Shown here one piece after another: positions 6,161 through 59,260 of a DNA stretch of 64,000 bases (position 1 is the first letter of the stretch; each line of letters begins with the position of its first letter). A model generated the notes under the pieces. It was not told the DNA's origin and did no database searches. It saw nothing but the letters and a program-made list of their open reading frames with translations. The translations under genes and the position numbers were made by a program. This DNA comes from Stegostoma tigrinum (lineage: Eukaryota): assembly GCF_030684315.1 (NCBI RefSeq), contig NC_081369.1:10826035-10890034 (forward strand). The letters run 5' to 3'.

Positions 6161-8905
6161 CGCATGACAATAATTGACTTCTCATAACTATTCCCTTTTT
6201 TACACAATAAAATAGCATTACATTTGGTTGCTTTAAATGAAATGGTGCCTTCAGTTTCTAAACAATTTGACAATGATTCCAAAACTTCATACAAAAGAAT
6301 GCAACATTTGACTCAGCTAGCTTATCCTTAAAACAGACATTCATGTGCCAGCAGTGGAACACTGACATGATGAGAATTTTTAACCTTCACTAGTGCTTCT
6401 TGACTTTAGACCAGAAATTACTTTTTCCTAGTTTGCTCCATTCCTTATCAACTAACTTGCATTCTATGTTACTCTTTTTACTCACCCACTAAAAAATGCT
6501 GGCCAGTAATCTAATATAAAGGCATGAAAGTTTTTTTCCCGAATTTTTCTTTGCAAGAATCTCTTAATATTTGGGATCAATCTCAAGTTCATTTAATTTA
6601 TATTGCTTTTGGCCCAACTAATTTATTGCTTCATGAGGCAAAGCTGAGATTCAGACTCACTGATCAAGTAATATTGCGCAGGGTTCTGCTTGTCTGTTCT
6701 TTGCTATTCTACATGTGGCGTATTGAATCTACTATTACTGTCAGATCTCCCAAACTTTTATTTTCTTCCAGAGTAGAATACATGCCACTTTGGACAAACT
6801 GCATATGACAAAATGGACCCATGCCCACATAATTTGAGATTTGTTTACCAGGTGGTCACAGTGAAGACACAGCTGGCTTTGGTTCACCACCTCGCCTTGA
6901 AAGCAGGGTTGAGACGTGAAGAAAGTCATGCTCTATCCTGGCTCTTTTGAGAACAATTAGAGTACAAAACACCTTCAGTACAGGAAAAAAAAAGTTCATG
7001 GTGCTTCAGAGAAAGTACAAGGAAGAACAAAGCAATAGGATAAATTAATCAATATTTCTGAAAACTAAAGTCAGATTTTAAGAATTGTCAAAGGAGAAGA
7101 AACTTAGATACCGGCAGGTTGAGGAACAGAATTCCAGGGTATAAAAGTCTAGACAGCTGAAAGCATGATCAATATTGGTGAGAAACTGGTGCATCTGAGG
7201 CCAAAATTAGATGATGAATGTGTCAGGGACAGAAAAGAGGGAAAGTAAAGCTAGAGAAGTTCAGAAATAACAAGGTGTTAAGGGATGAAGAGCCAACGTA
7301 AGTCAGGATCAACATTTGCTACAGGTTAAGGTGGGAGGACGAAAACAGTTCTGTTTTATGGGGAATGGAGTGCCAGGCAATGAGGAGTGGAGCACTAAGT
7401 CAGTCATGACTAAGGCGTAATTAGGTGTACATAATTTTTTTTGAGGTGTAAGTCAATAGTCTTTGGGAGCAACAATAAAGAATCTGCTCGTCAGCTCGTG
7501 ACAAATCTGGAAATCAAAGTTGCACTGGAAATGTTATGGAGTTAGAGGGGAGGACACAGTACTTTTGTTGAAAGCCTGAGGTGGTATTTTAGGTTTCCCA
7601 AGTGTTTAACTGGAAAACACCAACTAGACTGGATGAGAAAGCAACACAACACATTGCGGGAAAAGCTCAGCTGCAGTCTTAGTGCATGGAACTTCATTCT
7701 ATGTTTTTTTTTGTTATCTGCTTAACAGTAATTGCTCTTTACATTTTACAAGATTTTCTCAATTTTCTTTCCCATCACCCATCCCACCATTTACTAAGAG
7801 TCTTGATTCCCTTCTCTCGTCAAAGCATTTTAAACAAGTCCTCAGTCAAATATTCAATTTTCAAATATTCTCACTTTAGTTTTGGCAACTTTCAGTAAGA
7901 ACATTATATTAAAATATTTATGGATCCTCAGTAGTTATTTGCACAGTCGAGAAACTCTATGTATCTACCAATACAAATCAATTCTGAAGTTGCTATGTCA
8001 AGTTAATATCTGTATATCACAACATAAATTGATGCCAGAGAATTTGGATGAGAAACTATTTTGCATACACACAGTTACTGGGCCAAGGTGCATCATGTTC
8101 CAAAGGCACATAAATAGTAGCGAAGGCTATTGAGAACCAAGCTGAGCTTCATTGAAATTGGATGCAACCTTTTGACCACCTAAGAATCACCAATCTCTGA
8201 TTCACCTCTGGAAATGTGTCTGGGTCTTGGGCTTAAAGCATGGGTGAAACAAATCTCAACAATAAACTCCTCACTAGACATCCCCAAACACTGGATACTT
8301 TTGGATTGTACCACTAGACCGCATTCAACCCTCATTCGAACGAGCGTTTTAACCGAGCCTTTAACTGTCAACATTATGGCAAGTGAAACCATGACAAGAA
8401 CAGTCTATTTCAGTAAACGTTCAACACTAAAAGCAAACCTTCAACACAAAAAAACTGTTAATGGGAAATAAATGTTATCAGGCATTGGTGACTTGTTTTT
8501 TTGCTATGTATAGCAGATACCTATCACCAGAAAGTAATCATTCGCCATGTTAAACCTCCAAACACACTATCTTTCAGAAACACACTCAGTTGTTTCGACT
8601 TACAGAACATGGAGGGTACAGCTTTTCAAAGTTAGGATGTGTCATATTTACTGCAGGCCAAGTATTTAGGCAGAAATTAACAAGACGACAAATATAAAAC
8701 ATCTTAATAGGACTCCTGTGGCTCAGCCTCCCCACCTCTGAACCAGAAGACCCATGTTGAAATTCTACCTACTCCAGAGGTGTATCATAGTACAATTGAA
8801 CAGGTTTATAAAAACATTAAAAACACTTTAACCACCTAGGCACATGCAAGCTTTCTGCTGCTTATCACATTATTAGCTCCTATGTTAAATAGACACCATG
8901 AAAAG

Positions 8906-9106
8906 ATGGAGAGATAACAAGGTGTACGGCTGAATGAACACAGATTGCCAAGCAGAGGAGCAGGAAAGCTGATGTCTTCAGAAAAGGGTCAAGGCCCAAA
9001 ACATCAGCTTTCCTGCTCCTCTGATGTTGCTTGACCTGCTGTGTTCATCCAGCTCTACACCTTGTTATCTCAGATTCTTCAGCATCTGCAGTTCCTGCCA
9101 TCTCTA
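8906..9106. mobile_element. Palindromic Penelope-derived short element with 11-bp TSD
   Basis: Inverted arms GAGATAACAAGGTGTA.../...TACACCTTGTTATCTC; TSD ACCATGAAAAG at 8895-8905 and 9107-9117. Confidence 0.75.
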
Positions 9107-9725
9107 ACCATGAAAAGGTTCTTAGTCCCAGTGACAGATCTAATCTCCAATACCTCAATGAACTAAATTAGCAGTAAAACAGGCAACAATATTAAGTTTA
9201 CCATTTAGGAAAATTTCATGAAATGAAATAGTCTTCCAAATTTCTCAGACAAGAGTTTGAAACCTAAATAGTGAACTTTTAGGCTCAGGATATGACTTAA
9301 AGTCATTAGCAACTGAACTAATTTTCATTTCCACACCATTAATGACTGCAAAAGCTAGTGCTGATTGATACGGACTTTGAGGTGGGGCAGGTTATTGACA
9401 CAGGACTGGAAAAAAAATCATACCATGACAGAACATGTTTTCACAGCATTTCTTGGGTAATTAACAATTAGACGTATTAGGTATAACCAAGTCAATTACA
9501 GTCCATTTTTATACGAATTAGACGTTTCCATATTCTATACACGCCTTTAAACATCCGCCAGACATATACACAAGGTTTCCACACATCAAGACTTTACTAT
9601 TTTTCTGGTATATACATTTTCATTAATCCACGCAACAAGCATCTATATATTCCCGCCTACAGGCAGATGTCTATGCATTCAAGTCATATTTTAACCTCAC
9701 TGCTACAACATACTGTGTTTCTTAC

Positions 9726-9829
9726 CCCCATTCAGGAACGTGTGACTCGTAATCCCAGTACTCGCGGGGTTTCAGGCTGTTTACTTCGGCATACACGCGG
9801 GCCCTGCTCCCGGTAGCCGGACCCGGCAT
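9726..9829 (-). CDS. CSNK2A2: Casein kinase II subunit alpha' first coding exon ([35 protein letters not shown]); gene continues left of the window
   Basis: Translation closely matches the vertebrate CK2alpha' N-terminus ([15 protein letters not shown]). ATG in GCCATG context at 9829, 104-nt exon ending at a GG|GTAAG donor, inside a CpG island, head-to-head with CCDC113 as in human. Confidence 0.95.
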
Positions 9830-10430
9830 GGCAGAGCCAGGGCTCAGCTCTGGGATAAGGGGACGAAATCCCCAAGAGGGGGCAGCGGGGGGGACACAGA
9901 AGCCGCACCGCCACGGGGCAGACTGACAGTCGGGAGCCAGGCCCGGCCTCAACCCACGCAGCACCACCCGGGATAACTTCAGTAGCAGGGTTCGTGGAGC
10001 CAGCGGGAACTCCCCCGGGGCGCGGGGGGTCGATTAGAAAGGCCCAGTGCGGATCCCGAAAAAGATGGGTACGGTCGGGGCAACAGCAACGAGCTTATGA
10101 GAAACCTTACGGAGGATCAAACAGCAGAGCAGAACAGACCGAAGTCAACAAAACCGAACCGGACTTCCCTGAGGGAGGCCCGCAGCGGAAGAAAATATTC
10201 CGCCGGGTGCGGACCCAACCCTGAGAAACCGGTCACAAGCTCGCTCTATCAGCGAGAAGACACCGAGGGCCACAGGATGACGAGCGCCGGCAGCAGCGGC
10301 TCCTAGCGGCACCCAGCTGAAGCTGAGCGATGCCGGCTGCACACTCCAGCGGCAGCGACCCCTCGCGGCACCCCACTGAAGCTGAGCGACGCCGGCTGTC
10401 CGCTCCAGCGACTGCGGCACCTGGCGCTGT
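9740..10430 (-). promoter_or_regulatory. CpG island / promoter and 5'UTR of CSNK2A2
   Basis: GC- and CpG-rich stretch in an AT-rich background, surrounding and upstream of the start codon. Confidence 0.8.
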
Positions 10431-10852
10431 TTAATGAGACATGACCCACACGCTTACCACAGGCTCTAATGCCTTACAGAATAATACACGGGTAGCGGCA
10501 CAAAGGGATTAAGGAATTAAGACAGAAAAATCCCCACAAACTGTAACACCCGCCAATATTAGGTTTTCATAGATTATATGGAGACGTTGCTGAAACTTGT
10601 GTGAATCATTGGTACCGATAGAAATAAAACTGGAGTCACGTTCCTTCTGCATTTCTTCTTTTGTGATAATAATGTTCAAGTTGTAATACTGTGCCATGCA
10701 TATGCGGTGCTGCGTATTCCTAGATGAAATAACTTGCAAGTTAAATTAACAATTATAAACTAAATATATATCATATATACAGTAAGTTGCATTCCCTCTG
10801 ACTTTTTCCGTCTGCTGTGTGGACCTGTAAAGTCTACGCAAGGCATCAGCTT

Positions 10853-10950
10853 CCTGAACAGAAGGGTCTAGGCCCGAAACATCAGCTTTCCTGCTCCTCT
10901 GATGCTGCTTGGCCTACTGTGTTTATCCAACTCTACATCTTGTTGTCTCG
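10853..10950 (+). mobile_element. Penelope pseudo-LTR fragment with decayed hammerhead core
   Basis: GAAGGGTCTAGGCCCGAAACATCAGCTTTCCTGCTCCTCTGATGCTGC, same family as 8906-9106. Confidence 0.7.
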
Positions 10951-11424
10951 CATTTACCCACCAACTGGCATTTCACCCTATAAGCGGTTTCATGTTTTGA
11001 CATTAGGGACGTTGACTGTAGGTGCATAAAGACCATGAGGCATTTTAAAATATTAAGTTGAAATGGTGCATATTCTTAAGTGCCTACCTACGCAAATAAA
11101 ATAACCTTAAAGCAACATACATTTTGACAGCAGAAAAATCCAGTTTAAGTACGACTCTTCTGATGCTGCCTAGCCTGACTCTAGCTCCACACTGGGCTGT
11201 CTCCGACTCCCGGCATCTGCAGTTCTTGCTCTCTCTACTATAGCACTACCTTCACCTGAGGAAGTTTCTATTGGCCAAGCTCCATCTAGTGGCATAGACT
11301 TGTCAATGCAATTGGAACGAGCCGTACTTAACAACTTCTGCTGCTATGGTAGAGCCCACGACTTCAGCATAAGTTCACAGTAGGAGCTAAACAGCAAGGG
11401 GAGACACATCACCTCACATTTACC

Positions 11425-12140
11425 AGAGCTAACTAAACTCCTTCTGCTTTCGATCTGTCCATCTGACCAATCCATTAAATTTTCCTATAACCCAAAATCG
11501 TTCTTCACAGACAACCATCCGGCCAATCTCTGCATCAAACTTACCTATCATTCCCTCCACATTCTCATCTACATCATTTATATAAATCATGACCAATAAG
11601 CGCCACAGCATTCATTCCTATGGTGCCCGACTGGACACCAACCTCCAATCACATAAACTTTTGACAACAACCTCTCCTACTACTAAACCAAATTTGTATC
11701 CAAGTTGCCAATCTACCCTGAATTCCATGTGGTTTTATCTTTGTATTATTCTGCTGTTAACATGTGTTTCTCCCATGGGGGATCTTTGCTGAAATCCAGA
11801 CAAACTATATCAATTCTACTGCACACATCTGCACACTTCATCACCTCAAAAAATTCAACCAGATTTGTTAGAATCCCTCTGACAACACTTTGCAGTCTAA
11901 CCCTGATGAATCCTTGCAACTCTAAATGGAGATTGATTCTCTCCTTCACGACCTTCTGCAATAGTTTCCAGGCCACTGATTTGAGACTCGCTGGTCTATA
12001 ATTTCCTGATTTATCCTTTCCACTTGTAAAGTGGAACCACATTAGCTGTCCTTCAGTCCTCTCGCACCCCTCCTTTGGCTAGAGAAGAATTAAAAATTTG
12101 GGTTAGGGTCTATGATTTCCTCCCTTGTCTCCCAAGGCAG
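11425..12140 (-). mobile_element. Degenerate CR1 reverse transcriptase fragment
   Basis: Minus-strand ORFs GNYRPASLKSV..., LDFSK, IYIND..KFD. Confidence 0.85.
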
Positions 12141-14591
12141 CCTCATATCGCTGTTCCTTTACTGTCATTGGGTCAAAATCCTGGAAGTCCCTCCCTACAG
12201 TAATGGACTGCAGCAGTTTGAGAATGCAGCTCACCGCCACATTCTCAAGGGCAACTAGGGACAGGTAATAAATGCTGGTCAAACAGCAATGCCCATGTGC
12301 AATGAATGAGAAAAGAATCCTACTAAAGAGTTTCTAATACTTTTAATGCTGCAATGTCTTACTTAGCCGAATCTTTCCAGTTGTGATTGATAAGGGACTT
12401 ATTTCTAGCTCTATTAGCATAAACCACTTCTCAATTCCGATAGCGTGAAAAATTCCACACAACTCTAAGTTTGAAAACTTCACAAACTGAAATATCGCTG
12501 CTGGTTTGAAACTGCCCTACTGAACTGAAACCTGATTGTGAACTGAATTCAAAAAAAGCTAACGGTCCTGTACTGTTTCCTCTGTATGTGATAAAAATTC
12601 CACTTGGGAAGCATTCAATAAATTAACACCCTGGCTACCCTGACAGGCACTTACTAAGTCATCTGCTTTCTTATAAATCATGTATTTACTTCAATGTCAC
12701 AAATTATTTTCTGATCTCTTTCAAAAAATTACCTTCACAGCACTGAAACCAAAATCTATATTACCTCTAATTTAAAAAGAAAAATTTCCAAAATACAAAA
12801 ATATATTGTACACATTATCAGAAAACAATTGTTGAAATTTATTCAAGTAAACACCTATCAAATTATTTGTTAAAATACAGATTCAAAGATTTAAAGTAAG
12901 TGAGGATGAATGTCACAAATGAAGATGAAATTGATATCAGTGTCTACTATGAAGCAGGCCTGGCTTGCTTGAAGATTCTCTTTCTGACCTGAAGGGTTTG
13001 AAAACTTGGGTGCAATGTAGTCAAACAGCTGCCACAGTAAACTAAGCAGAAGTGTTTTGGAAGTGAGCGCAGGCTCCTTACTTTCATTTTTACAGCAGTA
13101 CCTGTTCTGACTATCGGTAGTCTGGTTCAGTGCAGCAAATCTGGAAACTTTCTTCTGTCTCCTGCTTGAAAAGCAGTTACTGCTTTAAAACGTTTCTCAC
13201 ATTTTTAAAACAAACATTTTGTGGAACAAAGCCAGCATTTTCTGCCCATCTCTAATTGCCCTTGAACTGAATGAATTGGGAGGCTCACTTCAGTGGGCAG
13301 TTAAGAGACAACCACATTGCTGTAGCTGAGGAGACATATTTAGAGCCAGCTTTCCCAAAAGACAAGTGAACCAACTGTGCTTCTGCAACATCATTGAAAC
13401 TGGTTTCAATTCCATTATAAATTGAATTTAAATTCCACCACTTGCTGAGGTGGGATTCAAACCCCTGACCAAAGATCAGTAACCTGGGTCTTTAATAACT
13501 AGTGTAGAAATGTTAACCCCTTCTCCTCTTCTGCATGAAATGGTTGTTCACAATCAGACTTCTATACAGTTCAAAACTTAAAATAGCTGCTATCCCAAAA
13601 CTGTTGAATTTTGTCTCTGTATTGAATTATCTTAGGCACAAACCCATTCATTATATTTTAGTTAGGTATTTTTTCTTAACTGCTTTAGCCATTTGCTTGG
13701 ATGGTTCTTATTCTGTAGTCTTTTGGAGAGATAAGCACAGCTATTCACAACTTCAGGGAAACCACTGCCAAAGACTTTCTAGTTACTGTTGGAAATATCT
13801 GCTGGGCTTCAAAATGTCTGGTCAATTTCTTCTTGACATAAGTACTGTATAGTATGGTCTGGTCTCAACACCACTGAGTTCACAAAGGCGGTCACGTCAC
13901 TTCTGAGAACCATCTTGTAAGATTCTTTGCATGTATTTTAAAGTTCGATTAATTTTCTTTGTAAAATATGTAACATTGTAACAACACAAATATTACAAAC
14001 CTTTTTAAAATTTTTATTGGCATACTGGGTCAGACTGATTTTGAAGCGGCAAATGGTGGGTCAGAGTGGAACAGATCTTGAGAAGCATTTCTTTACAATA
14101 CATAAAGCACACATTTTAATTTCATGTAAATATTAAGGTGTGAGCCCTGGTGCAGTGGTCACACTTCCGACCGACTCACAAGTTTATGGATTCAAATCCT
14201 GCTTCTGGAATCAGAGCCTTCAGCACCTCTCAGGTGACTGTAAAAGTGCCATGGCATTATTCAAAGAAATAAAACGCAGAGTTCTCTCAGTCCTGGCAAA
14301 CCCTGAACCATCAAGTAACAGCCAGAACAGATGATCTGGTCATTTCGTTGCTCCATAAAAAAATGACTCCCACTTTTCATAATTACATCATTGACCACAT
14401 AAATGTGTTTCCTTGCCTGTAAATTACTCAATGTCTAGAGTCTGTGAAAGATGTTACATTAATGCAAGTTTTACTTAATTTATTTTAATTCCCACTTATT
14501 TTGTTCAAAAATCACTGCAATGAGTTTTTCAATTAAATTTGTCATCCTTCTTAACTGAGTTACATTTTGTCCTTTAGTTGGTTCCATTAAT

Positions 14592-14791
14592 GTTTTGGCA
14601 AACATCTGTAGCTTGGGTTGTAGATGAGGTTGTTGACTTGCTCACTGAGCTGGTTTGTTCTCTTTCATACGTTTTGTCACCATGCTAGGTGACATCATAG
14701 TGGAGCACTGATACACTGATGATGTCGCCTAGCATGGTGACAAAACGTCTGAACGAGAACAAGTCAGCTCGGCGAGCAAGTCAACAATTTT
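14592..14791. mobile_element. Second-family palindromic Penelope-type element with hammerhead-like cores
   Basis: Inverted arms 14630-14787; CTGATGA-T-GTCGCC-TAGCAT-GGTGAC-AAAAC-GTC at 14716-14749; imperfect 11-bp TSD GTTC(C/T)ATTAAT. Confidence 0.7.
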
Positions 14792-16034: not shown

Positions 16035-16089
16035 CCAGAGATTGTTGATTCAGGGAATCAGGGAAGCTCAAATTTTCCACAGATCACTT

Positions 16090-16770: not shown

Positions 16771-17028
16771 ATACTTGCATTTTGTAATCCCAGAATTGGA
16801 ACCACACCAACCATAGACAAGATAGGCCAAAATTTGCTCTCTCGAAGTGATTGCTAATACTGTTGTTGATATTACTTGTTCAGGCCATCCTTGTCACTTC
16901 AAAGGCACTTAATCTGAAATGAACCTGGTCTCCATGTTACTATGAAGTTATACATGGCATTAGCTCGGATGTCAATGGAGGCTCAGTTAGCTGGATAACT
17001 GGTTTGTAACGTAGGGTAACGCTAACAT

Positions 17029-17159
17029 TTGTGATGAAGTGTCTAGGCCCGAACTTAGGCTTTTATGTTCCTAAAACGCTGCTTGGCCTGCTGTGTTCAT
17101 CCAGCTCCACACTTTGTCATCTCGACTTCTCCAGCATCTGCAGTTCCTACTTTCTCTGC
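17029..17159 (+). mobile_element. Penelope pseudo-LTR fragment inserted into a tRNA-derived SINE
   Basis: Family tail CCTGCTGTGTTCATCCAGC...CAGCATCTGCAGTTCCT; flanking AAC(G/A)CTAACA duplication. Confidence 0.65.
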
Positions 17160-17569
17160 AACACTAACAGCATGGGTTTATTTCCCACACCAGCAGTGGT
17201 TGTCATAAAGGCCTTTCCTTTTCAACCTCTACCCTTGCCTGAGATGTGGTGACTCTCGGGTTATAAACCATCACCAGTGACCCTGACTATACGTGTTGAA
17301 TATGTCCCCTCGTTTTAACAAAAAAGAGGCATCTGAAGAACCAATTGATAATTTCTTTCGATAATTTAGTGCGGCGATGGGTAGCTCCAAATCGCTAAAT
17401 CACTGCGGGGGCACTTGCGATTTCTGGGGTTGTTTCCTTTTTTATAAAGTTGATTTTGGATCTGCAGCAGCCGCGGAGCTGCGTTTGCTCGCTCACGTTC
17501 ACCGAGGCATCATCGCTGGGCGCTGGGGAGGAGACCGCACCATCTGCGCCTGCGCGGCTCTCCGGGCCG

Positions 17570-17594
17570 GTTTCCACGGAGACGGCTGTAAACA
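17570..17594 (+). promoter_or_regulatory. RFX X-box (GTTTCCACGGAGAC, 17570-17583) next to forkhead motif (TGTAAACA, 17587-17594)
   Basis: Matches the RFX and FOX consensus motifs 30-55 nt upstream of the ATG of a motile-cilia gene. Confidence 0.65.
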
Positions 17595-17624
17595 TTCGGC
17601 GGCGGGAGGGCGATCCCGGGAAAG

Positions 17625-22319: not shown

Positions 22320-22855
22320 GTAAGGGTTGATCACAAGCCGTTCTGTGCAGTTAGTGACTTGACTCCAACCACATACTGTGGAGATAGCCAGTACTAAATT
22401 TCAAATATTTATAAGTGCCAATTGCATCTCAAGTTAAATTGGAGGTCTATCAGTGCTAAATTATTATATTTAAGACTGCACAGAAAAGAATGGATAGAAT
22501 TATGGAATAAAAATCCCTAATTGATTAAAAAAATCTACAATTCATGATATAATTAACAGAATATTACAGTGCTGGGGACAGAGGATGTCATTTGAGGAGT
22601 TAAGTACATAATTTATTTAATTAGAGATAAGAAAAAAATGGAGTTACAATTATACAACTGGGTGTACGTTGTCAATCACCAGGGAAATTCTGTAAAGATG
22701 TGTCAGCTATAAAATAGCAATAATAAGGCACTGCTGCAATTATCCTAATATAGACTGGGATAGTAATTGTGTAAAAATTACTGAGGAGGAAAAGTTTCTG
22801 AAGCAGCAGCATTTTCTTAATGAATACGTTTCTAGTCCAGTCAGGATGGAAGCTT

Positions 22856-23045
22856 CAGAGATAGCAGGAACTGCAGATGCTGGAGAATCTGAGATAACAA
22901 GGTGTAGAGCTGGATGAACACAGCAGGCCAAGCAGCATCAGAGAAGCAGGAAAGCTGACGTTTCGGGCCTAAGAAATGTCAGCCTTCCTGCTCCTCTGAT
23001 GCTGCTTGGCCTGCTGTGTTCTTCCAGCTCTACACCTTGTTATTT
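22856..23045. mobile_element. Palindromic Penelope-derived element with 13-bp TSD in CCDC113 intron 3
   Basis: Near-perfect arms 22893-23043; TSD AGGA(T/A)GGAAGCTT at 22843-22855 and 23046-23058. Confidence 0.8.
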
Positions 23046-23149
23046 AGGAAGGAAGCTTTGCTGGTTCTGATTCTGAGGAATGGTGTTGTTCAGGTGAATG
23101 AATTATCATAAGGGGAAAGTTTAGAGAACAGTAATCATAGAATCATAGG

Positions 23150-38384: not shown

Positions 38385-38510
38385 CTGAAGGGTCCCGACC
38401 CGAAACGTCAAGCTTTCCTGCTCCTCTGATGATGCTTGGCCTGCTGTGTTCATCCAGCCTCACACCGTGTTATCTCTGACTCTCCAGCATCGGCAGTTCC
38501 TACTATCTCT
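38385..38510 (+). mobile_element. Penelope pseudo-LTR fragment with hammerhead remnant
   Basis: CTGAAGGGTCCCGACCCGAAACGTC followed by the family tail. Confidence 0.75.
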
Positions 38511-38749
38511 GTAACAACCTTTAAAATACTGTCCCAGTTTTTAAAGAATCAGAGTAAAAGCTCATGACCTATATTTCTCCTAATAAGCCACTGCCCACCA
38601 GGTCAACCTTGCATGTTCAGAACTCAAACTGATCACTCTCCCACTCCTGTTACATGCATGCTTTTTTCTCTAGGACTTTCTCATGGAGATCATTTCACTG
38701 CCAAAACTGTTTTGTCCAAGGACATTACTCCTATCTGAAATATGAAAGC

Positions 38750-41924: not shown

Positions 41925-42605
41925 GAAAAGCATCTAGGTTACAAAATGGACATTTGGCTGCTTGAACCCGCTCCATCATTTAATAAGATCACGGTTAATC
42001 TGTTTGTGTTTCAAATCCCGCTTTCCTATGTACTCTCAATATGATGCTATTGCCTAACAAAAATCTATCTGCTGTTGCCGTAAAAATATTCAATGACACT
42101 GCCTCCACTGACATCTGAGGCAGAGAGTTCCAAAGTTGCACAACACTCTGAGAAAAATCTCATCTTTGTTCTAAATTTGTGATCCCTAAAGTTAAAACAG
42201 CATCCCTAGTTCTGGATTCGCTCACAAGAAGAAACATCATTTCCAAATCTACCTTGTCAAGACTGTATTTATATTCTTTAATCAAGTTAGCCCTCACTGT
42301 TCTAAACTCCAGAGAAAATGAGTCGAGTTTATGCAGACTTAAAAGACAAGTTGCTCATTCACGTATCAATTTCCAATGTATTTACATCCTTTCTTAAATA
42401 AGGACACCAAAACTGCACACGTGTGTTTGAGATGAGATCTTAACAAACCCATATAACTGAAGTACAGCATCTTTACCTTTCTAATTCTTCAAATAATAAA
42501 GGATAGCATTCTACTAATTTTCTTAATTACTTGATATACCTGCATTTTACCATCTTGTGATTCATGTATTAGAAAACCAAAACAGCTCTGCACCTTGGAA
42601 TTCTG
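41925..42605 (-). mobile_element. CR1 3' fragment
   Basis: Typical reverse-strand CR1 3' text (AGAGTTCCAAAG, CCAAAACTGCAC). Confidence 0.7.
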
Positions 42606-43070
42606 CAGTCTGGGGATCGGCTGTGCACCAATATCCATAAGAAGCCTACCAACATCCACAGTTACCTCAGCTATACCTCCTACCACCTTGCTTCCTGCAA
42701 GGCTTTCACTCCATTTCCCAATTTCTCCATCTCCGAAGCATCTGTTCTGACGATGCCACCTTCCGCTGGGCTGCTTTCTTAACTAATGATTCCTCCCTTG
42801 TTGATAGGACCTTCAGCCACGTCCAAACCATCTTGTGCACTTCTGCGCTTATCCCTTCCCTTTCTTCCCAGAACAATGATAGGGTTCCCTTTGTCCTTAC
42901 TTTCTACCCCATTTAGTCTTTGTATTCTAAGGATCATTCCAGGCATTTCCACCACCAAACACATCATCCCCTCCTAACACTGTCAGCATTCCACAGGGAC
43001 CATTCCCTCCATGACATACTGCTCTATTTGTCCATTATTCCTGACTCTCCTTGTGCTTCCCTATTGAATG
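42605..43070 (+). mobile_element. Penelope-like element RT-thumb/linker remnant
   Basis: Translates to TNIHKKPTNIHSYLSYTSYH.ASCK...QFLHLRSICSD, resembling the PLE motif YKPTD.HSYL.Y.SSHP...QFLRLRRICS. Confidence 0.75.
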
Positions 43071-44050: not shown

Positions 44051-44375
44051 TATTCATGTTGTCAATTAACAGTGGAAACTATTAACCTGTGAATATGTCA
44101 AAATGTTGTAATGTGCTGGTCTTTTCATGAGTTGCTCCTCAATAAACATTCCAATATTATGTAAGAATAGGGAATTACTTCCAAGCAAAGCTGCATCACT
44201 ATACTGTAGGAATACCTAATAAGTGAGGATAATGAATATATTCCCAGCAATGTCAAGTCGCTGTGCAATAAAAATTAGCATTTCTTTGTCAGGTTAAAAA
44301 TGTTTGCGTTCGAAATTGCTTAAATGAAACAAACATAAAAAAAATTCAGGTCAAAGCCAAATAAATACTCATAGG

Positions 44376-44527
44376 GATAGCAAGAACTGCAAATGCTGGA
44401 GTCAGAGATAACACATTATGGATCCCATAACACAAATGGGATTTCTAAAGAAGGGTCCTGACCTGAAGCATCAACTTCCCTGCTCCTCTGATGCTGCCTG
44501 GCCTGCTGTGCTTCTCCAGCTCCATAC
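44376..44527. mobile_element. Two-orientation Penelope-derived insert with 14-bp TSD
   Basis: TSD TAAATA(C/T)TCATAGG at 44362-44375 and 44528-44541. Confidence 0.7.
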
Positions 44528-44675
44528 TAAATATTCATAGGCATGGTCTCACCCACTCTCATAAAGAAAAGGTTGTATGTGGAGTAACCTTTATAGTGGA
44601 AGGGACAGATGTCTTGAAAAGACAATATAACTTATAAACCTGCCTTCAGGCTGAAAATAGGTATGTAAGAATTAA

Positions 44676-44817
44676 GAGATAACAAGGTGTAGAGCTGGAT
44701 GAACACAGCAGGCCAAGCAGCATCAGAGGAGCAGGAAAGCTGACGTTTCGGGGTCTTCAGACATTTTGAAGAATTTCTGAAGAGGGGTCTAGGCCCAAAA
44801 TATCAGGTCCTACTATT
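44676..44817. mobile_element. Two-orientation Penelope-derived insert with perfect 14-bp TSD
   Basis: TSD TATGTAAGAATTAA at 44662-44675 and 44818-44831; hammerhead remnants on both strands. Confidence 0.8.
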
Positions 44818-46859
44818 TATGTAAGAATTAACCTGGCTTTCTTCTTCTCAAGCTTTAGTCATCTTAGAAATTAATGAAAATGTAAACATTTAAAAATGTT
44901 CATATCAAGAAAATGATGGTTCATGACACCAAGTTCTAAAGGAGATCTGACTGATTTGATTGCTCTTTTTCAAAGCTTATTAGTATATTCAGAAACATTT
45001 TCATTTGTGAAGACCACTCTAGTTAGATTTTAAGATTTTAAAACTGAAAGGCAAGTTCATACTTCTACAGAGGAGATCAACTTGTTGTTCCTGTATTTGA
45101 TGATTAAAAAAAGACAACAAATCAATACCTTAATATCTGGACAAGTGACTAATTTACTCCTTTTGGACCATATCTGCCTTTTGTACAGTTGCATCATGCT
45201 GGCTAGCCATTGTGGATAACTGTTATACGTGTTGCTGAAGATCCTGTGTTTGTTTCTGGATTGGTCTTAATTGCAGTACAATTATGGTCAGTTGTACTAT
45301 ACTAATATTAATGCACATTACACTATTCATAACTTATATAGACTCTGTCTTAAAATGAAAGCTATGTGCTAGACTGGGACAGAAGTTAAACTTTAATAGC
45401 ACTTATCACTGGTTCAAGAACCATTACACTTTCTCACCTGTGTGCAGTGATGCCACATCCATCCTACCAAGAGGACTGCTTGCAAGACTACTGTTATCCC
45501 ATAATCCAGACTGACACTACTGTTTGGCAGTATGTCCTGCAATATCAGATGTGACATCCTTTAGATGAGATGTTAAACCAAGGTGTCTGCTAATTCTGGA
45601 GGCTCTTCAAGACATTTCAAAGCAGTAAGGATGAAAGTGATGCCCTATCGAGGATGACTAAAACAGGTTTAACCAGCAAATTTGAATTTGCTTTTAGTGG
45701 GCCCTTGTGTGCAAACTATGTGTTATATACATCACTAATTGTACATGCAGTGCTTGAAGAGGTCACACGATGAAACATAAATTAAACATTTCTTTTAATA
45801 AGGAAAACTAGTTAACATTTGATGGAGTCAAGCCCAACTTATCACTTAAAACATGGTGGATAATCTTATTTTTGAGACCAGAGGGAATTTAAGTAGCAAT
45901 CTTTTGCGAGATGACCGAAGCCAGTAGGTATGACTTTCACAACTAATAAAACTTGGGAAGAACTGGAAGGGATGTGAGCAAAGGACCTCAGAATACCAAT
46001 TTCCTGCAGTATTCAGATTGCGTTGGCAGAATATTGCAATGCCAATGATGGAATTGACTGCTGGAATCTGAAAGTGAAGAATATTTACAGTTTCATAGGA
46101 AAAGCCTTGTGCATAATGGGAAAAATGAGACTTGACTGCTGAGCTGACTGAATCCATCAATGCAGCTTTTCCAACAAATAGCATGTCTCCTTTTTCCACA
46201 GTGCCCAAACATTACCATTGTTCCTGGTGGGATTTACTAGAATAATCAGACCAATTCTCAGAAGATCTAATTGCAAATTAAAAACATGGGTAGAAGATAA
46301 AGCATTGCATTTTCTTCAGAGGTTATCAAGACTTTACGCTTTGATCAAAGTGCAGGATGAAAGCATTTACTTGCATACTTTGCTGAAAACTGGCCATGTG
46401 AAAGTTGTGTAAAGAATGGCCATCTGCAGGGACGGCTTGTGACATCAGTGACCATTAAGGTCTCGATGTTCACTATTGCCCTTCAGGGAAGGAAATATGC
46501 AACCTTTAACAGGTCGGATTTACATGTGGCTCGATGAGCTGACGTGTTTGACTCTTCTGGGCAATAAATACTGGCCACGCCTGCGACAGCCACATCCCAG
46601 GAATGAAATTTTTAAAAAGTTGAAAGAATTTACAAGTTGATATTAAACCTCTTTTGCCCCACTGTGGCTGCACTTTCATTGTCGTCAAATCTGGGGTTTG
46701 GGAGGCCTGAACCCAGAGGCAGGGATGTGACCCACTGCGCCATAGGACCTCCATTCCCGAGGGGATTATTCAAGCGATGTAGGCGTCGTATTTTGTTAAA
46801 CAAAATCGATTCCAGTGAAACAGGCGCTGCACTGACATGGAAATAATTAAACGTTTAAA

Positions 46860-47859: not shown

Positions 47860-49270
47860 AACCATAAAATGGTCGCAACACAAGAAGTCGTTTTACCCGT
47901 TGAGGCCATTTGTCTGCACAAGAGTAATTCGGCTAACCCCAGTCCCGTTCTCCGAGCCCTGATTTATTTTGTTGTTTATACACCTGTCTTCACGACTCTT
48001 TAATTGTGAGTGGTAACTATGTCTTTCCTCACTTTGTCTTCACTTGTCATTCACTTTAAACCTGTGTCTTCTGGACACTTTCACCAATTGAAATAGATTC
48101 CCTGTAATTATTTTCTGAAGATGAATCCTCACCCGGAACGTCAGCTTTCCCGTTCAGGCGCTGCCTGGCCTGCTGTGTTCCTTCAGCTCCACGCTTTGTT
48201 TACTCTCAATTTACCATGCGTTCATGATTTTTAATAGCTCTATCAAATCTCATCTCACAACCTTCAAGAATAGCCCAGGCATCAACAACTGAAGCTTCTC
48301 ACCCCCAAATCCATTCTTGTAAATGTTTTCTGCACTGATGGTCTTTACATCCTTCCCTAAATTTGGTCCCCAGAACGTTATTAAAGTTGAATCACTGTTT
48401 TCACTGAATTGTTTTCATGCAGGTTAAGGTCAGTCAGCCCATCCCGTTCGGACTGGCTGCCTGACCAGTTTAATTTGAGCCACTCTACTGTCTTTTCACA
48501 GTTACCCTGCACATTATTTCTATTTAAATAATTACTAATGCCCTCTTGAATGCCCCAGTTAAAACTGCCTCCACCACACTGCAAGGCAGTGCATTCTAGC
48601 CTTCAGTCATTCAGTGTGAAAAGTTTCTCAGTTTTGCAACTTTTCAACTTTCACTCTCTACCTGTCCTACCACTTTTCATGAAACATCTACATGAAAATT
48701 GTGCCCTTTGGTTAGTATCATTTCTCCATGTTCTTTATACCAAGTTATCTGCATTGAACTTCATCTGCCCCCTATGCACACACTCTGCCAAGTTCTGCAC
48801 TGTACTCCTTGCAGTTTACAATTGCCCCAAATTTTGAATTGTCTGTAAACTTTCAAAGTTCCCTGCATTCCAAAATGTAAGTGATTTATATATCTGGAAA
48901 CACTAGGGGTCCCAAGACCCCTATCTGGGACAGTGGGCTACGAGCCCTCTTTGTGCCTGAAAAATAAGCATTAACCATTCATTTGCGTTTCCTATTCCTC
49001 AGCTAGTATATTGCTACTGTCCCTTTTATTCTATGATCTGTAACTCTCCTCCAAGTCTGTTGTGTAGAACTGCATTAAACACCTCTTGACAGTTCATGTA
49101 CCCCGCATCAACATCCTCGTCTTCATCTATCCCTGTTACCGCTTCAAAAAAAAACTCCAGCGAGTTAGATGCAATTTTTTTTTAAACAAATCCGTGCCGA
49201 CTTTTCCAAATTGGCCCACAACTTTCCATGTGATTATTTATTCTATCCTGAATAATTGTTTCTAGAATTG
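47860..49270 (-). mobile_element. Degenerate CR1 fragments with a nested Penelope tail (~48113-48205)
   Basis: Reverse-strand CR1 text; TCTGAAGATGAATCCTCACCCGGAACGTCAGC. Confidence 0.6.
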
Positions 49271-52074: not shown

Positions 52075-54340
52075 TAAAATCACTTGTTGGATGTGGCTCA
52101 CCAGCAACTATTGCATGTCTGTAGTTGCCCTTGAGACCCTTTTTGAACAGCTGCAGTCCACCTGCTGTGGGTTGACCCACAATGCCAGGAGGGAGGGAAT
52201 TCCAGGATTTTGACCCAGTGACAGTGAATGAGCACTGATATATTTCCAAGTGTACCTTGCAGATAGTACACATTGCTGCTACTGACCATGGGTGGATGAG
52301 GGAGTGGATGCTTGTGGATGTAGTGCTACTCAAGCAAGCTGCTTTGTCTTGGATGGTGTTAGGCTTCTTGCATATTGTTGGAGATGCCCCCATCCAGGCA
52401 AGTGTGGAATATTCCATCACATTCCTGTCTTGTGCCTTGTAGATGATGGTCTGGCTTTGGGGCGTCAGAAGGTGAGTTACTCGCTGCAGTATCAGCCTCT
52501 GATCAGCTCTTGTCGACACTATATTTATGTGGTGAGTCCAGTTGAGTTTCTGGCTAGTTGGGTAAGCCCTATGATGTTGATAGTGTAGGTTTCAGGATGA
52601 TAATGCCATTGAACCTCAAGGGGCGGTGGTTAGATCGCACCTTCTTGGTGATGGCCATAGCCTGGTATCTGCCCGACATAAATGTTACTTGCCACTTGTC
52701 AGCCCAAGCCTGGAATTTGTCCATATCTTGTTACATTTAAACACGGACTACTCCAGAATCTGAGGAGTCACGAATGATCCTTAACATTGTGCAATAATCA
52801 GCGAACATCCTTATTTCTGACCTTACAATGGAAGGAAGGTCATTGATGAAGTAGCTGAAGATGGTTGGGCCTGCAACACTACCCTGAGGAACTCCTGCAG
52901 AGGTGCCCTGGAGCTGAGATAACAGATCTCCAACAACGTTCCTTGTGTCAGATATGACTCCAACCAGGTCAGAGTTTGCCCCCTGATACTCATTGATTCC
53001 AGTTTTGCTAGGGCTTATTGATGCCACACTTGGTCAAATATAGCCTTGATGTCCAGGTTGTCAGTCTCACCTCACCTCTGGAATTCAGCTTTGTTGTTTA
53101 TATTTGAACCAAGGCTGTAGTGCGGACAGGAGCTGAGTGGTCCTATGGAAACCCAAATTGGGCGTCACTGAGCAGGTTATTAATGAACAGATGCTGCTTG
53201 ATAGCACTATTGATGACATGCCGTCTGCAACTGGATCTTCAGCTTTCTGAACCACAGGCTACAATCAATGAAGACAGGTAACTGCACCTCCTCCACAATG
53301 ACATGTACTACTGAAGCCTCCCAAGGACGCGTGCTGAGCCCTGTACTGTACTCCTTGTACACCCATGACTGTGTTGCCAGATTCCGAACGAACATCATCT
53401 ATAAGTTCGCTGACGACACCACCGCAGTGGGATGTATATCTAACAATGATGAGTCAAACTACGGGAGGGAGATAGAGGGCTTGGCGATGCAGTGCAATGA
53501 AAACAATCTGTCTCTCAATGTTGGTAAAACTAAAGAATCGATCATTGACTTCAGGAAGAAAGGAGGAGACCACACCCCATTGACATCAATGGACCTGATG
53601 TTGAGAAGGTGAAGAACATCAAGTTTTTCAGTGATGATAACCGACAACCTGCCCTGGATCTCACACATAGATGCAACAGTCAAGAAGGTACAACAACGCC
53701 TGTACTTCGTTAGGCAGCTCAGGAAATTTGGCATGTTCGTAAGGTCCCTCACAACATCTACAGATACACCGTTGAAAGCGTACTATCCAGGTAGGTGACG
53801 GCCTGGTATGGCAACCCTCTGCCCAAGACCATAAGAGACTACAGACCATGGTGCGCACAGCTCAGACCATCGCGGAAGCCAACCTTCCATCCATGGACTC
53901 CATTTGCATGGCTCGCTGCTGCAGAAAGGCTGCCAATATCATCAAAGACCCATCACACTCCAGTAATGATCTCCTATAACCTCTTCCGTTAGGCAGAAAA
54001 AACAGAAGCCTGAACAAACACACCAGCAGGTTCAGGAACAGCTTCTTCCTGGCCATTATCAGACTGATGAATGGGCTGTCTCGCCTGAAATAATGTTTAT
54101 CTTGCTAATGTTCATCTTGTATACCGTACGCTCTGTGCAATGTAACCTGTATGTCTCTGTCTATGTCTTTTTGATCTGTACTGTGATTTACTTGTACTGC
54201 TCACAAACAAATTTTCCACTGTGTTTTGGTACATAAATAAATCAATCAATTAATTCTATCACTTCACTGATGACCAAGAGCAGTCTGAATGACTCGTTTG
54301 ATATGTCCTGCTATTTACTTACGTGACACACCTGGGCAAT
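52075..54340 (-). mobile_element. CR1-clade LINE interrupted by a Rex1/Babar insertion
   Basis: GVPQGSVAGPTIFSYFINDLP...MFAD on the minus strand; host sequence resumes at ~54254. Confidence 0.85.
53220..54252 (+). mobile_element. Rex1/Babar-type LINE 3' part
   Basis: QGRVLSPVLYSLYTHDC...KFADDTT...LNVGKTKE.IIDFRK; AAATAAATCAATCAAT tail. Confidence 0.85.
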
Positions 54341-54520
54341 AGTCCCCTGACACCACTACCACCACCAGCTCCCACTTCCGTCTCCAGTCCGACCCAACTA
54401 AACACTAACCTGACTACAGTTGATCTGGCCTCACCATACCTCTTCAAGTAACAACTTGCCACCCTACCTCTTACTCAGTTCCTTCCTGACCTCCTCATCA
54501 CCCATCCACCAACTTACGTA

Positions 54521-55372
54521 TTAGAACATAGAACATTAAACAATAGAGTGCAGAACATGCCCTTCGGCCCTCGATGTTGCGCTGACCTGTGAACTAATCT
54601 AAGCTCATCCCCCTACACTATCCCATCATCATCCATAAGCTTATCCAAGGACTGTTTAAATGCCCCTAATGTGGCTGAGTTAACTACTACAGATGCAAGG
54701 CTCACAGGTCTATAATTACCTGGGTCATCGCTACTGCCCTTCTTGAACAAGGGCACAACATTCGCAATCCTCCAGTCCTCTGGTACTAAACCTGTAGACA
54801 ATGAGGACTCAAAGATCAAGGCCAAAGGCTCCACCATCTCCTCCCTAGCTTCCCAGAGAATCCTCGGAAAAATCCCATTCAGCCCAGGGAATTTCACACC
54901 TTCTAGAATTGATAACACCTCCTCCTTACTAACCTCAATCCTTTCAATTCTAGTAGCCCTTAACTCAGTCTTCTCCTCTACAATATTCTCCTTTTCCTGA
55001 GTGAAAACAGATGGGCATTATTCGTCTAGCACCTCTCCGATCTCCACAGGGCCCACACACAAATTCCCACTTCTGTCTTTGACTGGCCCCATTCCTCCCC
55101 TAGTCATCCTCTTATTTCTCACATACCTATAGAAAGCTTTAGGGTTCTCTTTATTCTACCTGCTAATGTCTGCTCATGTCTCCTCCTTGCTCTTCTTAAC
55201 TCTCTCTTTAAATCCTTCCTAGCTAATCTGTAACTCTCCATCGCCTCATCTGAACCCTCTTGTCTCATAAGCCTCCCTCTTCCACTTAACAAGAGATACA
55301 ATTTCTTTAGTAAACCACGGTTCCCTTACCTTATCACTTCCTCCCTGCCTGACAGGGACATACCTATCAAGG
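54521..55372 (-). mobile_element. CR1 copy with a large internal RT deletion
   Basis: PEDWRIANVVPLFKKG..PGNYRPVSLASVV fused directly to the C-terminal ATLGAFKQSLDKLM; (TTCTATG) tail. Confidence 0.85.
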
Positions 55373-56074
55373 ATTATCACCAGCTGTCCCACCTCCTATT
55401 CAGCCTGCCACCTTTCTCACTCACAAAAGCACCTGCCTACTTATTCCTTCATCAACGTGTCACACCAATCCCTCAACCAAGCACCTGCTACCCCTCACCC
55501 ACCTGCAATCCTGTACTAAAGATCCTTGGGATTCCTGGCTGTGTAGCCCCAAACCCTGGGATCCCAACTGTCACTTACACAGCCATGATATTGACTGCGG
55601 TTTTCCTTTTGTGAGAAAATTGCGACTTTTTCAGGTTGTGGAGCATCGTAAAACTTCAGGAAAATGTTAAATTAATTCGAATATCAGGCTGGATTTTTAA
55701 AAAAAATGTTCATGGGAACTTTCTGGTGACCTATTCTTGTAGCCATCGTATGTATATAGCTGTCCAGTTTAGTTTTTGACTAATGGTAACCCCCAGGATA
55801 CTGATTTTAGGAGATTCAGTGATGGTAATGCCATTAAATGACATGGTCATGATTGTTCGATGTTCTCTTGTTGGATATGGTCATTGCCCGGCACTTGTGT
55901 GGTGTGAATGTTACCTGACATATACGATCTGATTGAGGTGCAGAAAATGTTAGAGGGATTCTTTGGGATGTATTTATTTTCCCCTGTTGTGGTAATCAAG
56001 GTAAGTGGGACAGTCTTAAAAATAGGTCAACTAGGCCATTTAGGAAAGAAATCATTAAGACATTTTTTATTAAG

Positions 56075-56393
56075 ATCATAGAATCCTATGATTCATAGAA
56101 TGCCTACAGTTTGGAAACAGGCCCTTCGGCCCAACATGTCCACACTAATCCTCAAAGCATGCCCCAGTAATCCACCTCATCTGCACATCCCTGAACACTA
56201 TGGGCAATTTAGCACGGCTAATCCAGCTAACCTGAACATCTTTGGACTGTGGGAGGAAACCGGAGCACTCAGAAGAAGCCCGTGCAGACACGGGGAGAAG
56301 GTGCAAACTCCACACAGACAGTTGCCCGGGCTGGAATCGAACTCAGGTCCCTGGTGCTGTGAGGCAGCAGTGCTAAACACTGAGCCCCCGTGC
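56075..56393 (-). mobile_element. HE1-like V-SINE
   Basis: tRNA-like head with A and B boxes (GGCTCAGTG; GAGTTCGATTCC), V-domain text and CR1-derived tail. Confidence 0.88.
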
Positions 56394-56866
56394 TGAAGTA
56401 AAGAGTACAGAAATTTGCCATTGCCTCCCTAAAATTTGTGAATGCTGAGACAGAGCTCTTCAAACTCAGCTTTGACTTTGGCTGACCAAAAGACAGCAGC
56501 TAAAGGGAAGTGTGGACTGTTTCAGAGTAAAGGCAAATGCCTCTGTAGCATACGGAACAAGCTGCTTGAGGAAGCAGGAGAGGCAGGTACACTTACAACA
56601 TTGAAATGACATTTGGACAGGTACATGGATTGGAAAGGTTTAGAGACTGAAGGGTCTGTTTTCATGCTGTATGACTCTAAGAAGCTGTCTGTGGGACAAA
56701 AGGAGCAGAACAGCTTCCCCATGATCGTTCCAAGTTCACTTGCTTTCTTGGCATTGCATTTTCTTTGCCCATCAGTCAGCCCTAAACCATGCACAGGCCA
56801 GCAACTGCTGGTTGGGAAATGGATCCCTCCTTGTGATCAGAGATCGGACACTTAAGCCAAGCTCCC

Positions 56867-57174
56867 ATTAGATTCCCTACAATGCGGAAACAGGCCCTTC
56901 GGCCCAACAAGTTCACACTGCCCCTTGAAGCATCCCACCCAGACTCATTCCCCTGTAACCCACACACCCCCGAACACTGTGGGAAATTCAGCATGGCCGA
57001 TCCACCTAGCCTGCACATCTTTGGACTGTGGGAGGAAACCAGAGGACCTAGAGGAAACCCAAGCAGACACGGGGAGACTGTGCAAACTGCGCACAGACAG
57101 TTACCCGAGGCTGGAATTGAACCCGGGTCCCTGGTGCAGCGAGGTTGCAGTGCTAACCACTGAGCCACCGTGCC
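56867..57174 (-). mobile_element. HE1-like V-SINE, full length
   Basis: GGCACGGTGGCTCAGTGGTTAGCACTGC...GGGTTCAATTCCAG head; tail GGGCCGAAGGGCCTGTTTCC. Confidence 0.9.
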
Positions 57175-57454
57175 ACAGCTGCGGACTCCTTGTCCTTGGT
57201 TTCAGCCTCCTCCCCACCCAATGTTGATAAGGCTGACTTCTAGATGGGGACCACATCAGGAAAAAGTGGTGCTGCCTATCACCAGCTTAGAAAGTATCAG
57301 GGTCATAATCAGTTTCATCACGTAGAATTTTCAGCAACCAATCTGTGGACAACATTCGCTCACAAACAGCAATATTATAATGACCAAGTGATCTGTTTTT
57401 TTGAGATATTAGTTGACGTTTAAGTATTGACTGGGACACCAGAAAAAAACTAGA

Positions 57455-57582
57455 AAGATAGTAGGAACTGCCGATGCTGAAGAATCTGAGATAACAAGGT
57501 GTAGAGCTGGATGAATACAGCAGGCCAAGCAGCATCAGAGAAGCAGGAAAGCTGACGTTTCCGGCCTGGGCCCTTCTTCAGG
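57455..57582 (-). mobile_element. Penelope pseudo-LTR with hammerhead core
   Basis: Minus strand CTGAAGAAGGGCCCAGGCCGGAAACGTC (57581 to 57554) plus the full family tail. Confidence 0.8.
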
Positions 57583-58636
57583 TCTAGTTTATGGAAAACT
57601 GCCAAGGAATACATTTAAGTGGAAGGCAGGAAAATTATGATTCAAAATTTACCATAACTTGGATTTTTAGACTACTTGCTGCAAGACCTCACATAAGGCA
57701 ATTAATAGCTGAGTTTAGAAAACATTAAACAAATGTGGTGGGATATATGCAAATAGAAACATTTCACTTTCAAAGTGGATACCATTGTCATTTATAATGT
57801 GTGACTAGTGAACCCCTTATGGCATTGCTCAGAGTGAGCCACAGGGTGGTATGATGGACATTTGTTCAAAATGAACAGATAAAGCAATGGTTCGTTGACT
57901 CAGATTTCCATCAAGCCAAGCAGGATCAATAGATAAAAGCAAATGATGTTTTACTGACATGAATTTTCCAGCCAGTCATCAATCAATATTTTCTACATGT
58001 GTATACTTAATATATCACTTTCAGCATGCACAGGACGTTGAATGTAATATTGGTCAATCTTCTAGAAGATTGTTGGTGGAAACTGAAGAAATATGCTCAA
58101 TAATATATGAGGATTAGATGGTATAATGGGAATGTCTAATGTTACAGCAAACTAATAATGTTGCTCAAATAAATCTAAACAGTTGAAAATTGAGATATAA
58201 ATTTATATTGTATTGTTTTATTTAATTGTAAACTGTAAATTATTAAAAGATACAAAGTTATATACCAAATGTACAAAAAACTAAATATTTATACGTGTGA
58301 ACATCTAAATGTCTATATGTATGTAAAATATTAAGCAAAATTTTGCATGTAGCATCTTGTCAGCAGATCATACAATAAAAAGTAGTTCTAAGAATTTTAT
58401 TTTGTGTGAGTGTCAGTTTGTTTGGTTAAAATAAATTCTGTAGTTGAAACATCAGCCAGAACAGATAGCATAATGCTTCAATGTTGAAGAGGTATGATAT
58501 GTCTGAGAAGGAAGGAGGAATGAATAAATTGGACCGAGCTTGATGACAATTAGTGCAGAAAGCTGGTGTAGCAGCTGAAGGGTAAATTTGAATGGCAGGA
58601 TGTGCTGCAAGCTTCGAGAATATGTGAATAAATTTG

Positions 58637-59000
58637 AGACAAAAACAGAAATTGCTGTAAAAGCTCAGTAGGTCTGGCAGCATCTATGCTAAGAACTCAG
58701 AGTTAACTCTGATTCCTCTCCATATTAGATTAGATTACCTGCAGTGTGGAAACAGGCCCTTCAGCCCAACAAGTCCACACTGCCTCTTGAAGCATCCCAC
58801 CCAGACACATTGCTCTATAACCCACACACCCTGAACACTATGGGCAATTTAGCATGGCCGATCCACCTAGCCTGCACATCTTTAAACTGTGGAAGGAAAC
58901 CGGAGCACCCGGAGGAAACCCAAGCAGACACAGGAGAATGTGCAAACACAGATGCTGCCAGACTTGCTGAGCTTTTACAGCAATTTCTATTTTTGTGCCT
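58637..59000. mobile_element. Palindromic Penelope-derived element split by a truncated HE1 SINE (58724-58947, minus)
   Basis: Arms CAAAAACAGAAATTGCTGTAAAAGCTCAG...GCAGCATCT and AGATGCTGCCAGAC..GCTGAGCTTTTACAGCAATTTCT. Confidence 0.78.
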
Positions 59001-59067
59001 TACATTTACATTCAGTTCTTTTCCTAGTAAAAGACAGTATTCCATTAATCTTAATAATCTGCATGCT

Positions 59068-59097
59068 GATGTTTCGGGTCCACTGACCCTTCTTCAG
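59068..59097 (-). ncRNA. Candidate minimal type I hammerhead ribozyme
   Basis: CUGAAGA-A-GGGUC(AGUG)GACCC-GAAAC-AUC: catalytic boxes intact, perfect 5-bp stem II. Confidence 0.5.
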
Positions 59098-59260
59098 AAT
59101 TAGCAACTGGCTCAGGCCGAGGTTCTTGGCAGTGACTACAGGCTCTCTGACCTGCCTACCAATGCAACAGACATCCTCGTGCTATCTGCATTTTCATCAA
59201 TGTTTGCCTGTATACGAACCCATTGAAGTTCCCATCTGAACCTTCTGTGTCTGTGGCTTC

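Follow-up and report, generated by a model that had tools for sequence, protein, structure and literature searches.

A 64,000-nucleotide stretch of the Stegostoma tigrinum genome (contig NC_081369.1, positions 10,826,035 to 10,890,034; hereafter the window) carries 12 short insertions derived from Penelope-like elements (PLEs). These stubs correspond to the 3′-terminal ~95 or ~128 nt of an abundant element encoding a reverse transcriptase (RT) and a GIY-YIG endonuclease (family A), or of a second, related family (family B). All of the copies listed in the original prediction, which was made from the sequence alone, were recovered by a motif scan, a repeat search and BLAST. A profile of the 3′ part of the element found 13 family A segments, and a second profile placed family B pieces at 58630-59101. 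The original prediction had described one family of short, self-complementary copies. Most copies do form one family, A, but two families were mixed in the list, and the pieces at 58630-59018 and 59067-59101 belong to family B. Inverted pairs were confirmed, yet they account for only 5/12 insertions, the other seven being single arms, and the folding of a single arm is no better than that of shuffled sequences (z -0.94 to +0.47, 4/4 sequences). The four target-site duplications (TSDs) that had been proposed lie where they were placed, and one additional, weaker TSD was found. Positions within copies are numbered from C3 of the hammerhead core (+1), and cleavage in family A is predicted after +28. 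The 12 insertions and one coding remnant are as follows.

8895..9117, unstranded: family A inverted pair with an 11-bp TSD (8895-8905/9107-9117, 11/11); the minus arm has its short 3′ end (+94) at 8911, and the plus arm covers +4 to +127 (8982-9105).
10851..10950, plus strand: family A single arm from ~-2 to the short end, with a 3-nt insertion in the core; TSD not found.
11155..11237, plus strand: decayed family A tail piece (+39 to +127) without the core.
17018..17169, plus strand: family A single arm from -2 to +127 (17028-17158), with a possible 10-bp TSD bearing one mismatch (17018-27/17160-69, 9/10).
22843..23058, unstranded: family A inverted pair with a 13-bp TSD (22843-55/23046-58, 12/13) and its junction within the near-palindromic stem II; minus arm from +127 to +13 (22857-22972), plus arm from +15 to the short end (22971-23043).
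38385..38511, plus strand: single arm of an older family A subfamily, from the core to +127, with a 3-nt core deletion; TSD not found.
42609..43026, plus strand: decayed PLE coding remnant from the RT thumb/linker region, nearest to family B, with no tail after it.
44362..44541, unstranded: family A inverted pair with a 14-bp TSD (44362-75/44528-41, 13/14); minus arm reduced to a tail piece (~44374-44420), plus arm from ~-3 to +86 (44442-44527).
44662..44831, unstranded: family A inverted pair with a perfect 14-bp TSD (44662-75/44818-31, 14/14); minus arm from +95 to 0 (44675-44761) with stem II deleted, plus arm from ~-4 to +30, then jumping to the terminal ~12 nt of the long end (44772-44817).
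48112..48205, plus strand: decayed family A single arm from -2 to the short end.
57455..57581, minus strand: family A single arm from +1 to +127, with the best-preserved core of the window (first stem II pair broken); adjacent TSD not found.
58630..59018, unstranded: family B inverted pair whose arms meet at the palindrome surrounding the cleavage site, with a repeat (~58721-58946) resembling a short interspersed element (SINE) splitting the pair; the minus arm (58630-58708) runs from the short end, and the plus arm consists of 58709-58720 and 58947-59018; TSD not found.
59067..59101, minus strand: only the hammerhead core of a family B-type copy (-3 to +31), without its tail.

Two of these arms, 44772-44817 and 59067-59101, break at +30/+31, next to the cleavage site, and both resume, or seem to, in the tail at a shared CAG. 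Such breaks are rare, and 0/169 cores in the genome sample described below lead into unrelated sequence.

As for the parent element, 8 of the 30 listed loci matching the best window copy extend upstream through a pyrimidine-rich 3′ untranslated region and then into sequence encoding the GIY-YIG endonuclease and RT. In one family A copy a frame of 657 aa is open and matches RVT_1 at E 9.5e-6, which is weaker than the Pfam cut-off. The endonuclease was recognised from the translation; Pfam gave no match for it, and a solved-structure search with the open reading frame (ORF) of the element also returned no match. Family B is a second RT and GIY-YIG element of the same kind, and both families have a CX4CxxC linker. 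A CX2-5CxxC linker before the endonuclease is a mark of Neptune and Nematis and is absent in Penelope and Poseidon (PMC8557442). Judged by its linker, the parent element fits an endonuclease-containing (EN+) PLE of the Neptune/Nematis type. The hallmarks of EN+ PLEs were found, namely pseudo-long terminal repeats (pseudo-LTRs), an inverted 5′ copy, a one-sided tail of 30-40 bp and a TSD. The near-full-length copies (L244, L245 and L247) are laid out like the stubs: the long end is on an inverted arm, and the direct arm terminates at the short end. The coding remnant that had been noted at 42605-43070 as the only one seen is real, with 66% identity to a long family B copy over 331 nt, while coding copies are abundant elsewhere in the genome. 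Thus PLE origin, a minimal type-I hammerhead, inverted 5′ ends and TSDs were all upheld. Of the two origins offered in the original prediction, the first, extreme 5′ truncation, proved correct, the copies being the 3′ end of RT and GIY-YIG elements.

The genome was sampled in 151 stretches of 10 kb (1.51 Mb) at fixed round coordinates, mostly on large contigs. This sample yielded 356 tail segments, of which 18 near locus ends were dropped, leaving 338 arms; subfamily statistics rest on the 239 arms that were typed. With 78 pairs counted once, there were ~260 insertions in the sample (~170 per Mb), which extrapolates to ~5 x 10^5 insertions in the 3.2-Gb genome. The 3′ ends were bimodal, near +94 and at +127/128. 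A tail of 30-40 bp on one end only is a known PLE feature (PMC8557442), and in vitro the tail maps to two internal RT start sites of an Anolis element (PMC11167929). Among the inverted pairs found with the family A model, 72/78 join one long and one short 3′ end (p 3e-16 for 72/77 classed pairs), and the same combination was found in 23/26 family B pairs. A TSD of 9-18 bp flanks 54/78 inverted pairs, compared with 0-4 in five flank shuffles. The same geometry holds from 150 bp up to near-full-length copies. In the family A tail, both 3′ ends close on a similar TATCT motif (+88..+95 and +121..+128), which may be a signal for the two RT start sites.

These results bear on whether the stubs are ordinary miniature inverted-repeat transposable elements of a DNA transposon. 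The hairpin shape, the lack of an ORF and the flanking direct repeats resemble such elements. However, the arms are unequal by the ~34-nt tail, the TSD length varies, and seven of the window insertions are single-armed. Continuity with RT and endonuclease coding sequence refutes this origin, to which we assign a negligible probability.

The 5′ ends of the stubs are concentrated at one edge. Of the 338 arms, 165 begin in -9..+10 of the hammerhead core, ~20-fold above background. In subfamilies Y and O, 119/221 at-risk arms stop in this zone against 6.2 expected from the upstream rate, and among Y and O arms without an inverted partner 35/108 stop there against 3.0 expected. In family B, 59/84 arms start in -9..0, a count that may be inflated by old B-like copies differing upstream. 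Simulated random truncations on real flanks gave no pile-up (53 called against 51 true, with 0/440 mis-called into the zone). Identity to the element falls to background beyond ~-3 in Y and O, or -4 in B. Among copies carrying the 5′ body of the element, 13/30 start in -12..+12. RNA contigs from four runs of a related organism have loose ends at the same 5′ edge and at the short 3′ end, although neither a start nor expression can be read from contigs. A second 5′ peak seemed to lie near -300, but it was an artefact that disappeared once split alignments were chained. The suggestion that ends recur relative to the GUC cleavage site held in so far as the ends are non-random, but the positions at which they recur are the ribozyme's 5′ edge and two 3′ sites. 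The cleavage site itself is not a peak of 5′ ends: 11/315 arms fall in +26..+31, a rate like that of neighbouring positions.

Upstream of the edge, a TATA-like box starts in long copies at -34 (Y, 45 copies), -35 (O, 14 copies) and -33 (B). It therefore lies 29-32 nt before the 5′ edge in three subfamilies with different sequences, and family B also has an initiator-like motif with its A at -4. The fixed start ~30 bases past the TATA-like box likely marks the RNA start of the parent element. A bacterial promoter scan gave no match, its model not being applicable to this element. A TATA box and an initiator-like motif have also been noted in the pseudo-LTR of Adineta Pen2a (PMC3846280). In the template of the Anolis carolinensis Poseidon element (PAc), inspected by eye, a TATA-like run lies 31 nt before an initiator-like motif, which itself lies 14 nt ahead of the core (PMC11167929).

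The two arms of a pair are coupled in length. Both arms pass -12 in 11 pairs, only one does so in 2 and 2 pairs, and neither does in 63 (p 7e-10). This coupling points to the template, and not the individual RT pass, as the source of the edge. Paired arms share subfamily variants (47 against a null mean of 19; 19 against 5) and hardly any rare variants (2 and 0), and no mixing of subfamilies was seen among the Y/O pairs that were fully typed (0/46). In 25/78 pairs it is the long arm that extends further upstream, and in 29/78 the short arm, so neither arm is a copy of the other. These counts argue against formation of the pair from one cDNA that folds back, or from an antisense RNA that self-primes as proposed in PMC3846280, with the endonuclease resolving the hairpin and leaving the tail on one side. 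Such an origin would accommodate the junctions that lie on palindromes or have CCC/GGG microhomology, and the greater likeness of arms within a pair than of arms from different pairs. It is at odds with the fillers at many junctions and with the match of both 3′ ends to the in vitro RT start sites of a related element (PMC11167929), and we regard it as improbable.

We consider it probable, judging from the ends and arms of the copies, that the stubs are dead-end, extremely 5′-truncated insertions of an autonomous PLE, double-primed at two internal sites and running off the 5′ end of the RNA. Each of the two nicked target strands would act as a primer, reverse transcription would begin at two internal sites, and a single element RNA would serve both primers. 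The cDNAs would then run off the 5′ end of this RNA, a likely transcription start lying 3-4 nt ahead of the hammerhead core. Stubs would result from priming in the 5′ pseudo-LTR and long copies from priming in the 3′ pseudo-LTR, and the two cDNA ends would be joined by end-joining with fillers or microhomology. The arm coupling and the shared variants fit a single RNA bearing both primers, with its 5′ end close by when they sit in the 5′ pseudo-LTR and distant when they sit in the 3′ pseudo-LTR. In vitro, internal initiation at two sites, cutting and extension of both strands and use of uncleaved RNA as template have been reported for PAc (PMC11167929). PAc thus shares with the present element two RT start sites bracketing the tail, ~120 nt past the core, both strands being cut and extended, and hammerhead cleavage not being needed. 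It differs in belonging to another clade and in having an ORF that starts in stem II, and the available text of that paper has no discussion of the 5′ ends of genomic copies.

Several observations weigh against double-primed run-off from a capped start. Only 13/65 edge-starting single arms have a TSD (shuffles 0-1), and pair detection misses the partners of arms longer than ~835 nt. Subfamily O appears to have its edge at -3 and shows no enrichment of an initiator-like A at -4 (0.18-0.29). A cap might leave an untemplated G at the edge, and base counts there show no excess of G. Of the body-carrying copies, 6/30 reach -20 or beyond, and these additionally require read-through RNA or template jumps. 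The promoter of Penelope in D. virilis is TATA-less and internal, and its start lies ~120 nt before the end of an intron that abuts the ribozyme (PMC2377424, PMC4209133). Finally, both strands used both start sites alike in vitro (PMC11167929), which does not account for the pairing of long with short ends.

The same double-primed insertions could also have an edge that is not a transcription start, produced by an RT block or by 5′ exonuclease trimming to a protein-bound ribozyme fold. In favour of this, the edge falls on the 5′ strand of stem I, which has 4 bp in family B; family A has a C-run immediately upstream of the edge; and no cap signature shows in the base counts. However, a block at each RT pass predicts independent arms where coupled ones are seen, stop rates at upstream C-runs equal the background, and family B is without a C-run at the edge. 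Trimming, for its part, does not predict a TATA-like box at a similar distance upstream in three subfamilies with different sequences. We judge this explanation of the edge to be unlikely, while giving some weight to trimming.

The second origin offered in the original prediction was a non-autonomous, retrozyme-like hairpin unit that is transcribed, cleaves itself and is mobilised in trans. The nearly constant size and ends of the copies, their own TSDs and their very high number would suit such a unit; pseudo-LTR-related retrozymes have been reported in vertebrates (bioRxiv 10.64898/2026.07.22.740005), and short tandem dimers occur elsewhere in the same genome. The non-LTR retrozymes of that report are, like the stubs, pseudo-LTR-derived and ORF-less, with a type-I hammerhead. 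They differ in being arranged head to tail in tandem, every unit having an intact ribozyme; copies in the window stand alone or head to head, their cores have decayed, and unit ends set by cleavage were not found. Short and long copies could not be told apart, as 0/62 positions separate them at p<0.02 (Y 57 vs 66, O 48 vs 18). Edge-starting and long copies are similarly diverged (0.059/0.048; 0.092/0.086), and 48 short hairpins have 34 different centre lengths. A self-spreading unit is not supported, because there are no diagnostic differences and the hairpin centres vary by copy; kilobase-long coding copies with the same layout, the lack of a 5′-end peak at the cleavage site and the frequent loss of the intact core also oppose it. 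We consider such a unit very improbable. Solo copies that keep the promoter could nevertheless supply RNA in trans.

The hammerhead has a minimal type-I core (CUGANGA...GAAA...NUH). Covariation of stem II, on which the original prediction had hinged, was found across subfamilies together with covariation of stem I, in 26 hand-picked rows of related sequences. Stem II is 94.6% paired, with a fourth pair that is U-A, U-G or C-G, and the second stem I pair varies between U-A, C-G and U-G. This covariation indicates that the fold was kept in active elements. Among the copies scored, intact cores were found in 59/106 Y, 2/14 O, 1/5 O2 and 1/15 B copies, and a strict intact-core pattern had 0 matches among the window copies. 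An Rfam scan gave no hammerhead family at E<=5, the only matches being hairpin-driven miRNA families under the cut-off. On the sequence data, the hammerhead is a passenger that decays after insertion. It shares with the minimal type-I hammerheads of metazoan PLEs an extra base before stem II, G10.1-C11.1, the lack of loop 3 and a palindromic 15.2-16.2, but stem I has only 2-4 bp here and the present ribozyme is predicted from sequence (PMC4209133). Those metazoan hammerheads are mostly single motifs, 'probably related to truncated PLEs', and some lie close together on opposite strands (PMC4209133). In the genome sample, 4/78 pairs and one single copy have an arm starting at +29, the first base past the cleavage site and also the site of a 4-nt palindrome, and in 8/78 pairs neither arm starts before +24 (p 7e-5, post hoc). 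The +24 and +29 ends are explained equally well by joins centred on a palindrome or by subsequent central deletions, and the +29 junctions give a weak, ambiguous hint of cleaved templates.

Described EN+ PLEs (PMC8557442), including Adineta Pen2a (PMC3846280), share the inverted pseudo-LTR, the one-sided tail, a TSD of ~8-10+ bp and a hammerhead near the 3′ end. Unlike them, about half of the arms here stop at one edge and give ORF-less units of 100-250 bp. The fixed 5′ edge, the long and short end rule and the arm coupling were not found in the literature searched, in which subscription papers and Repbase notes were little covered. The architecture is already published, and the fixed 5′ edge and the pairing rule offer a testable mechanistic clue. 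Hundreds of thousands of stubs provide a natural record of how the inverted ends, tails and pseudo-LTRs of PLEs form, with three measurable rules: long joined with short ends, coupled arms, and a 5′ edge ~30 nt past a TATA-like box. They also carry a warning that most minimal-hammerhead matches in such genomes are decayed passengers and not a retrozyme family.

A more speculative reading, which we put forward tentatively, is that the stubs are the Penelope counterpart of the strong-stop DNA of LTR retroelements. A protein dimer would prime both nicks on a single capped RNA, using the two sites of its 5′ pseudo-LTR; the first base of this RNA would lie exactly at ribozyme stem I, and the run-off cDNA would integrate as a stub or jump to the 3′ pseudo-LTR. 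If true, that jump would rebuild the upstream promoter and explain the origin of pseudo-LTRs and of retrozyme-like tandems.

With a query that selected for them, 27/30 copies with the start of the element body were short head-to-tail dimers. In these, a core-tail unit and ~90-800 nt of body are followed by another core-tail unit, whose start is often again at the -4 edge. The dimers resemble retrozyme dimers and may record template jumps.

Other features of the window are few. A Pfam search of seven window ORFs found nothing beyond an RT piece of the long interspersed element type at 53217-53612 (RVT_1, E 1e-8). Copies of the SINE-like repeat lie at 56094-56328, 56867-57107 and 58721-58968. 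The region 9750-10420 is GC-rich and island-like, and is possibly a promoter or first exon. A third hammerhead-bearing family, absent from the list in the original prediction, was found at 14630-14787 as an inverted pair with 69-nt arms, 90% complementary, and a longer stem II. Its forward arm likewise starts a few bases before the core, at 14716, and by comparison with the Anolis motif this family looks Poseidon-like.

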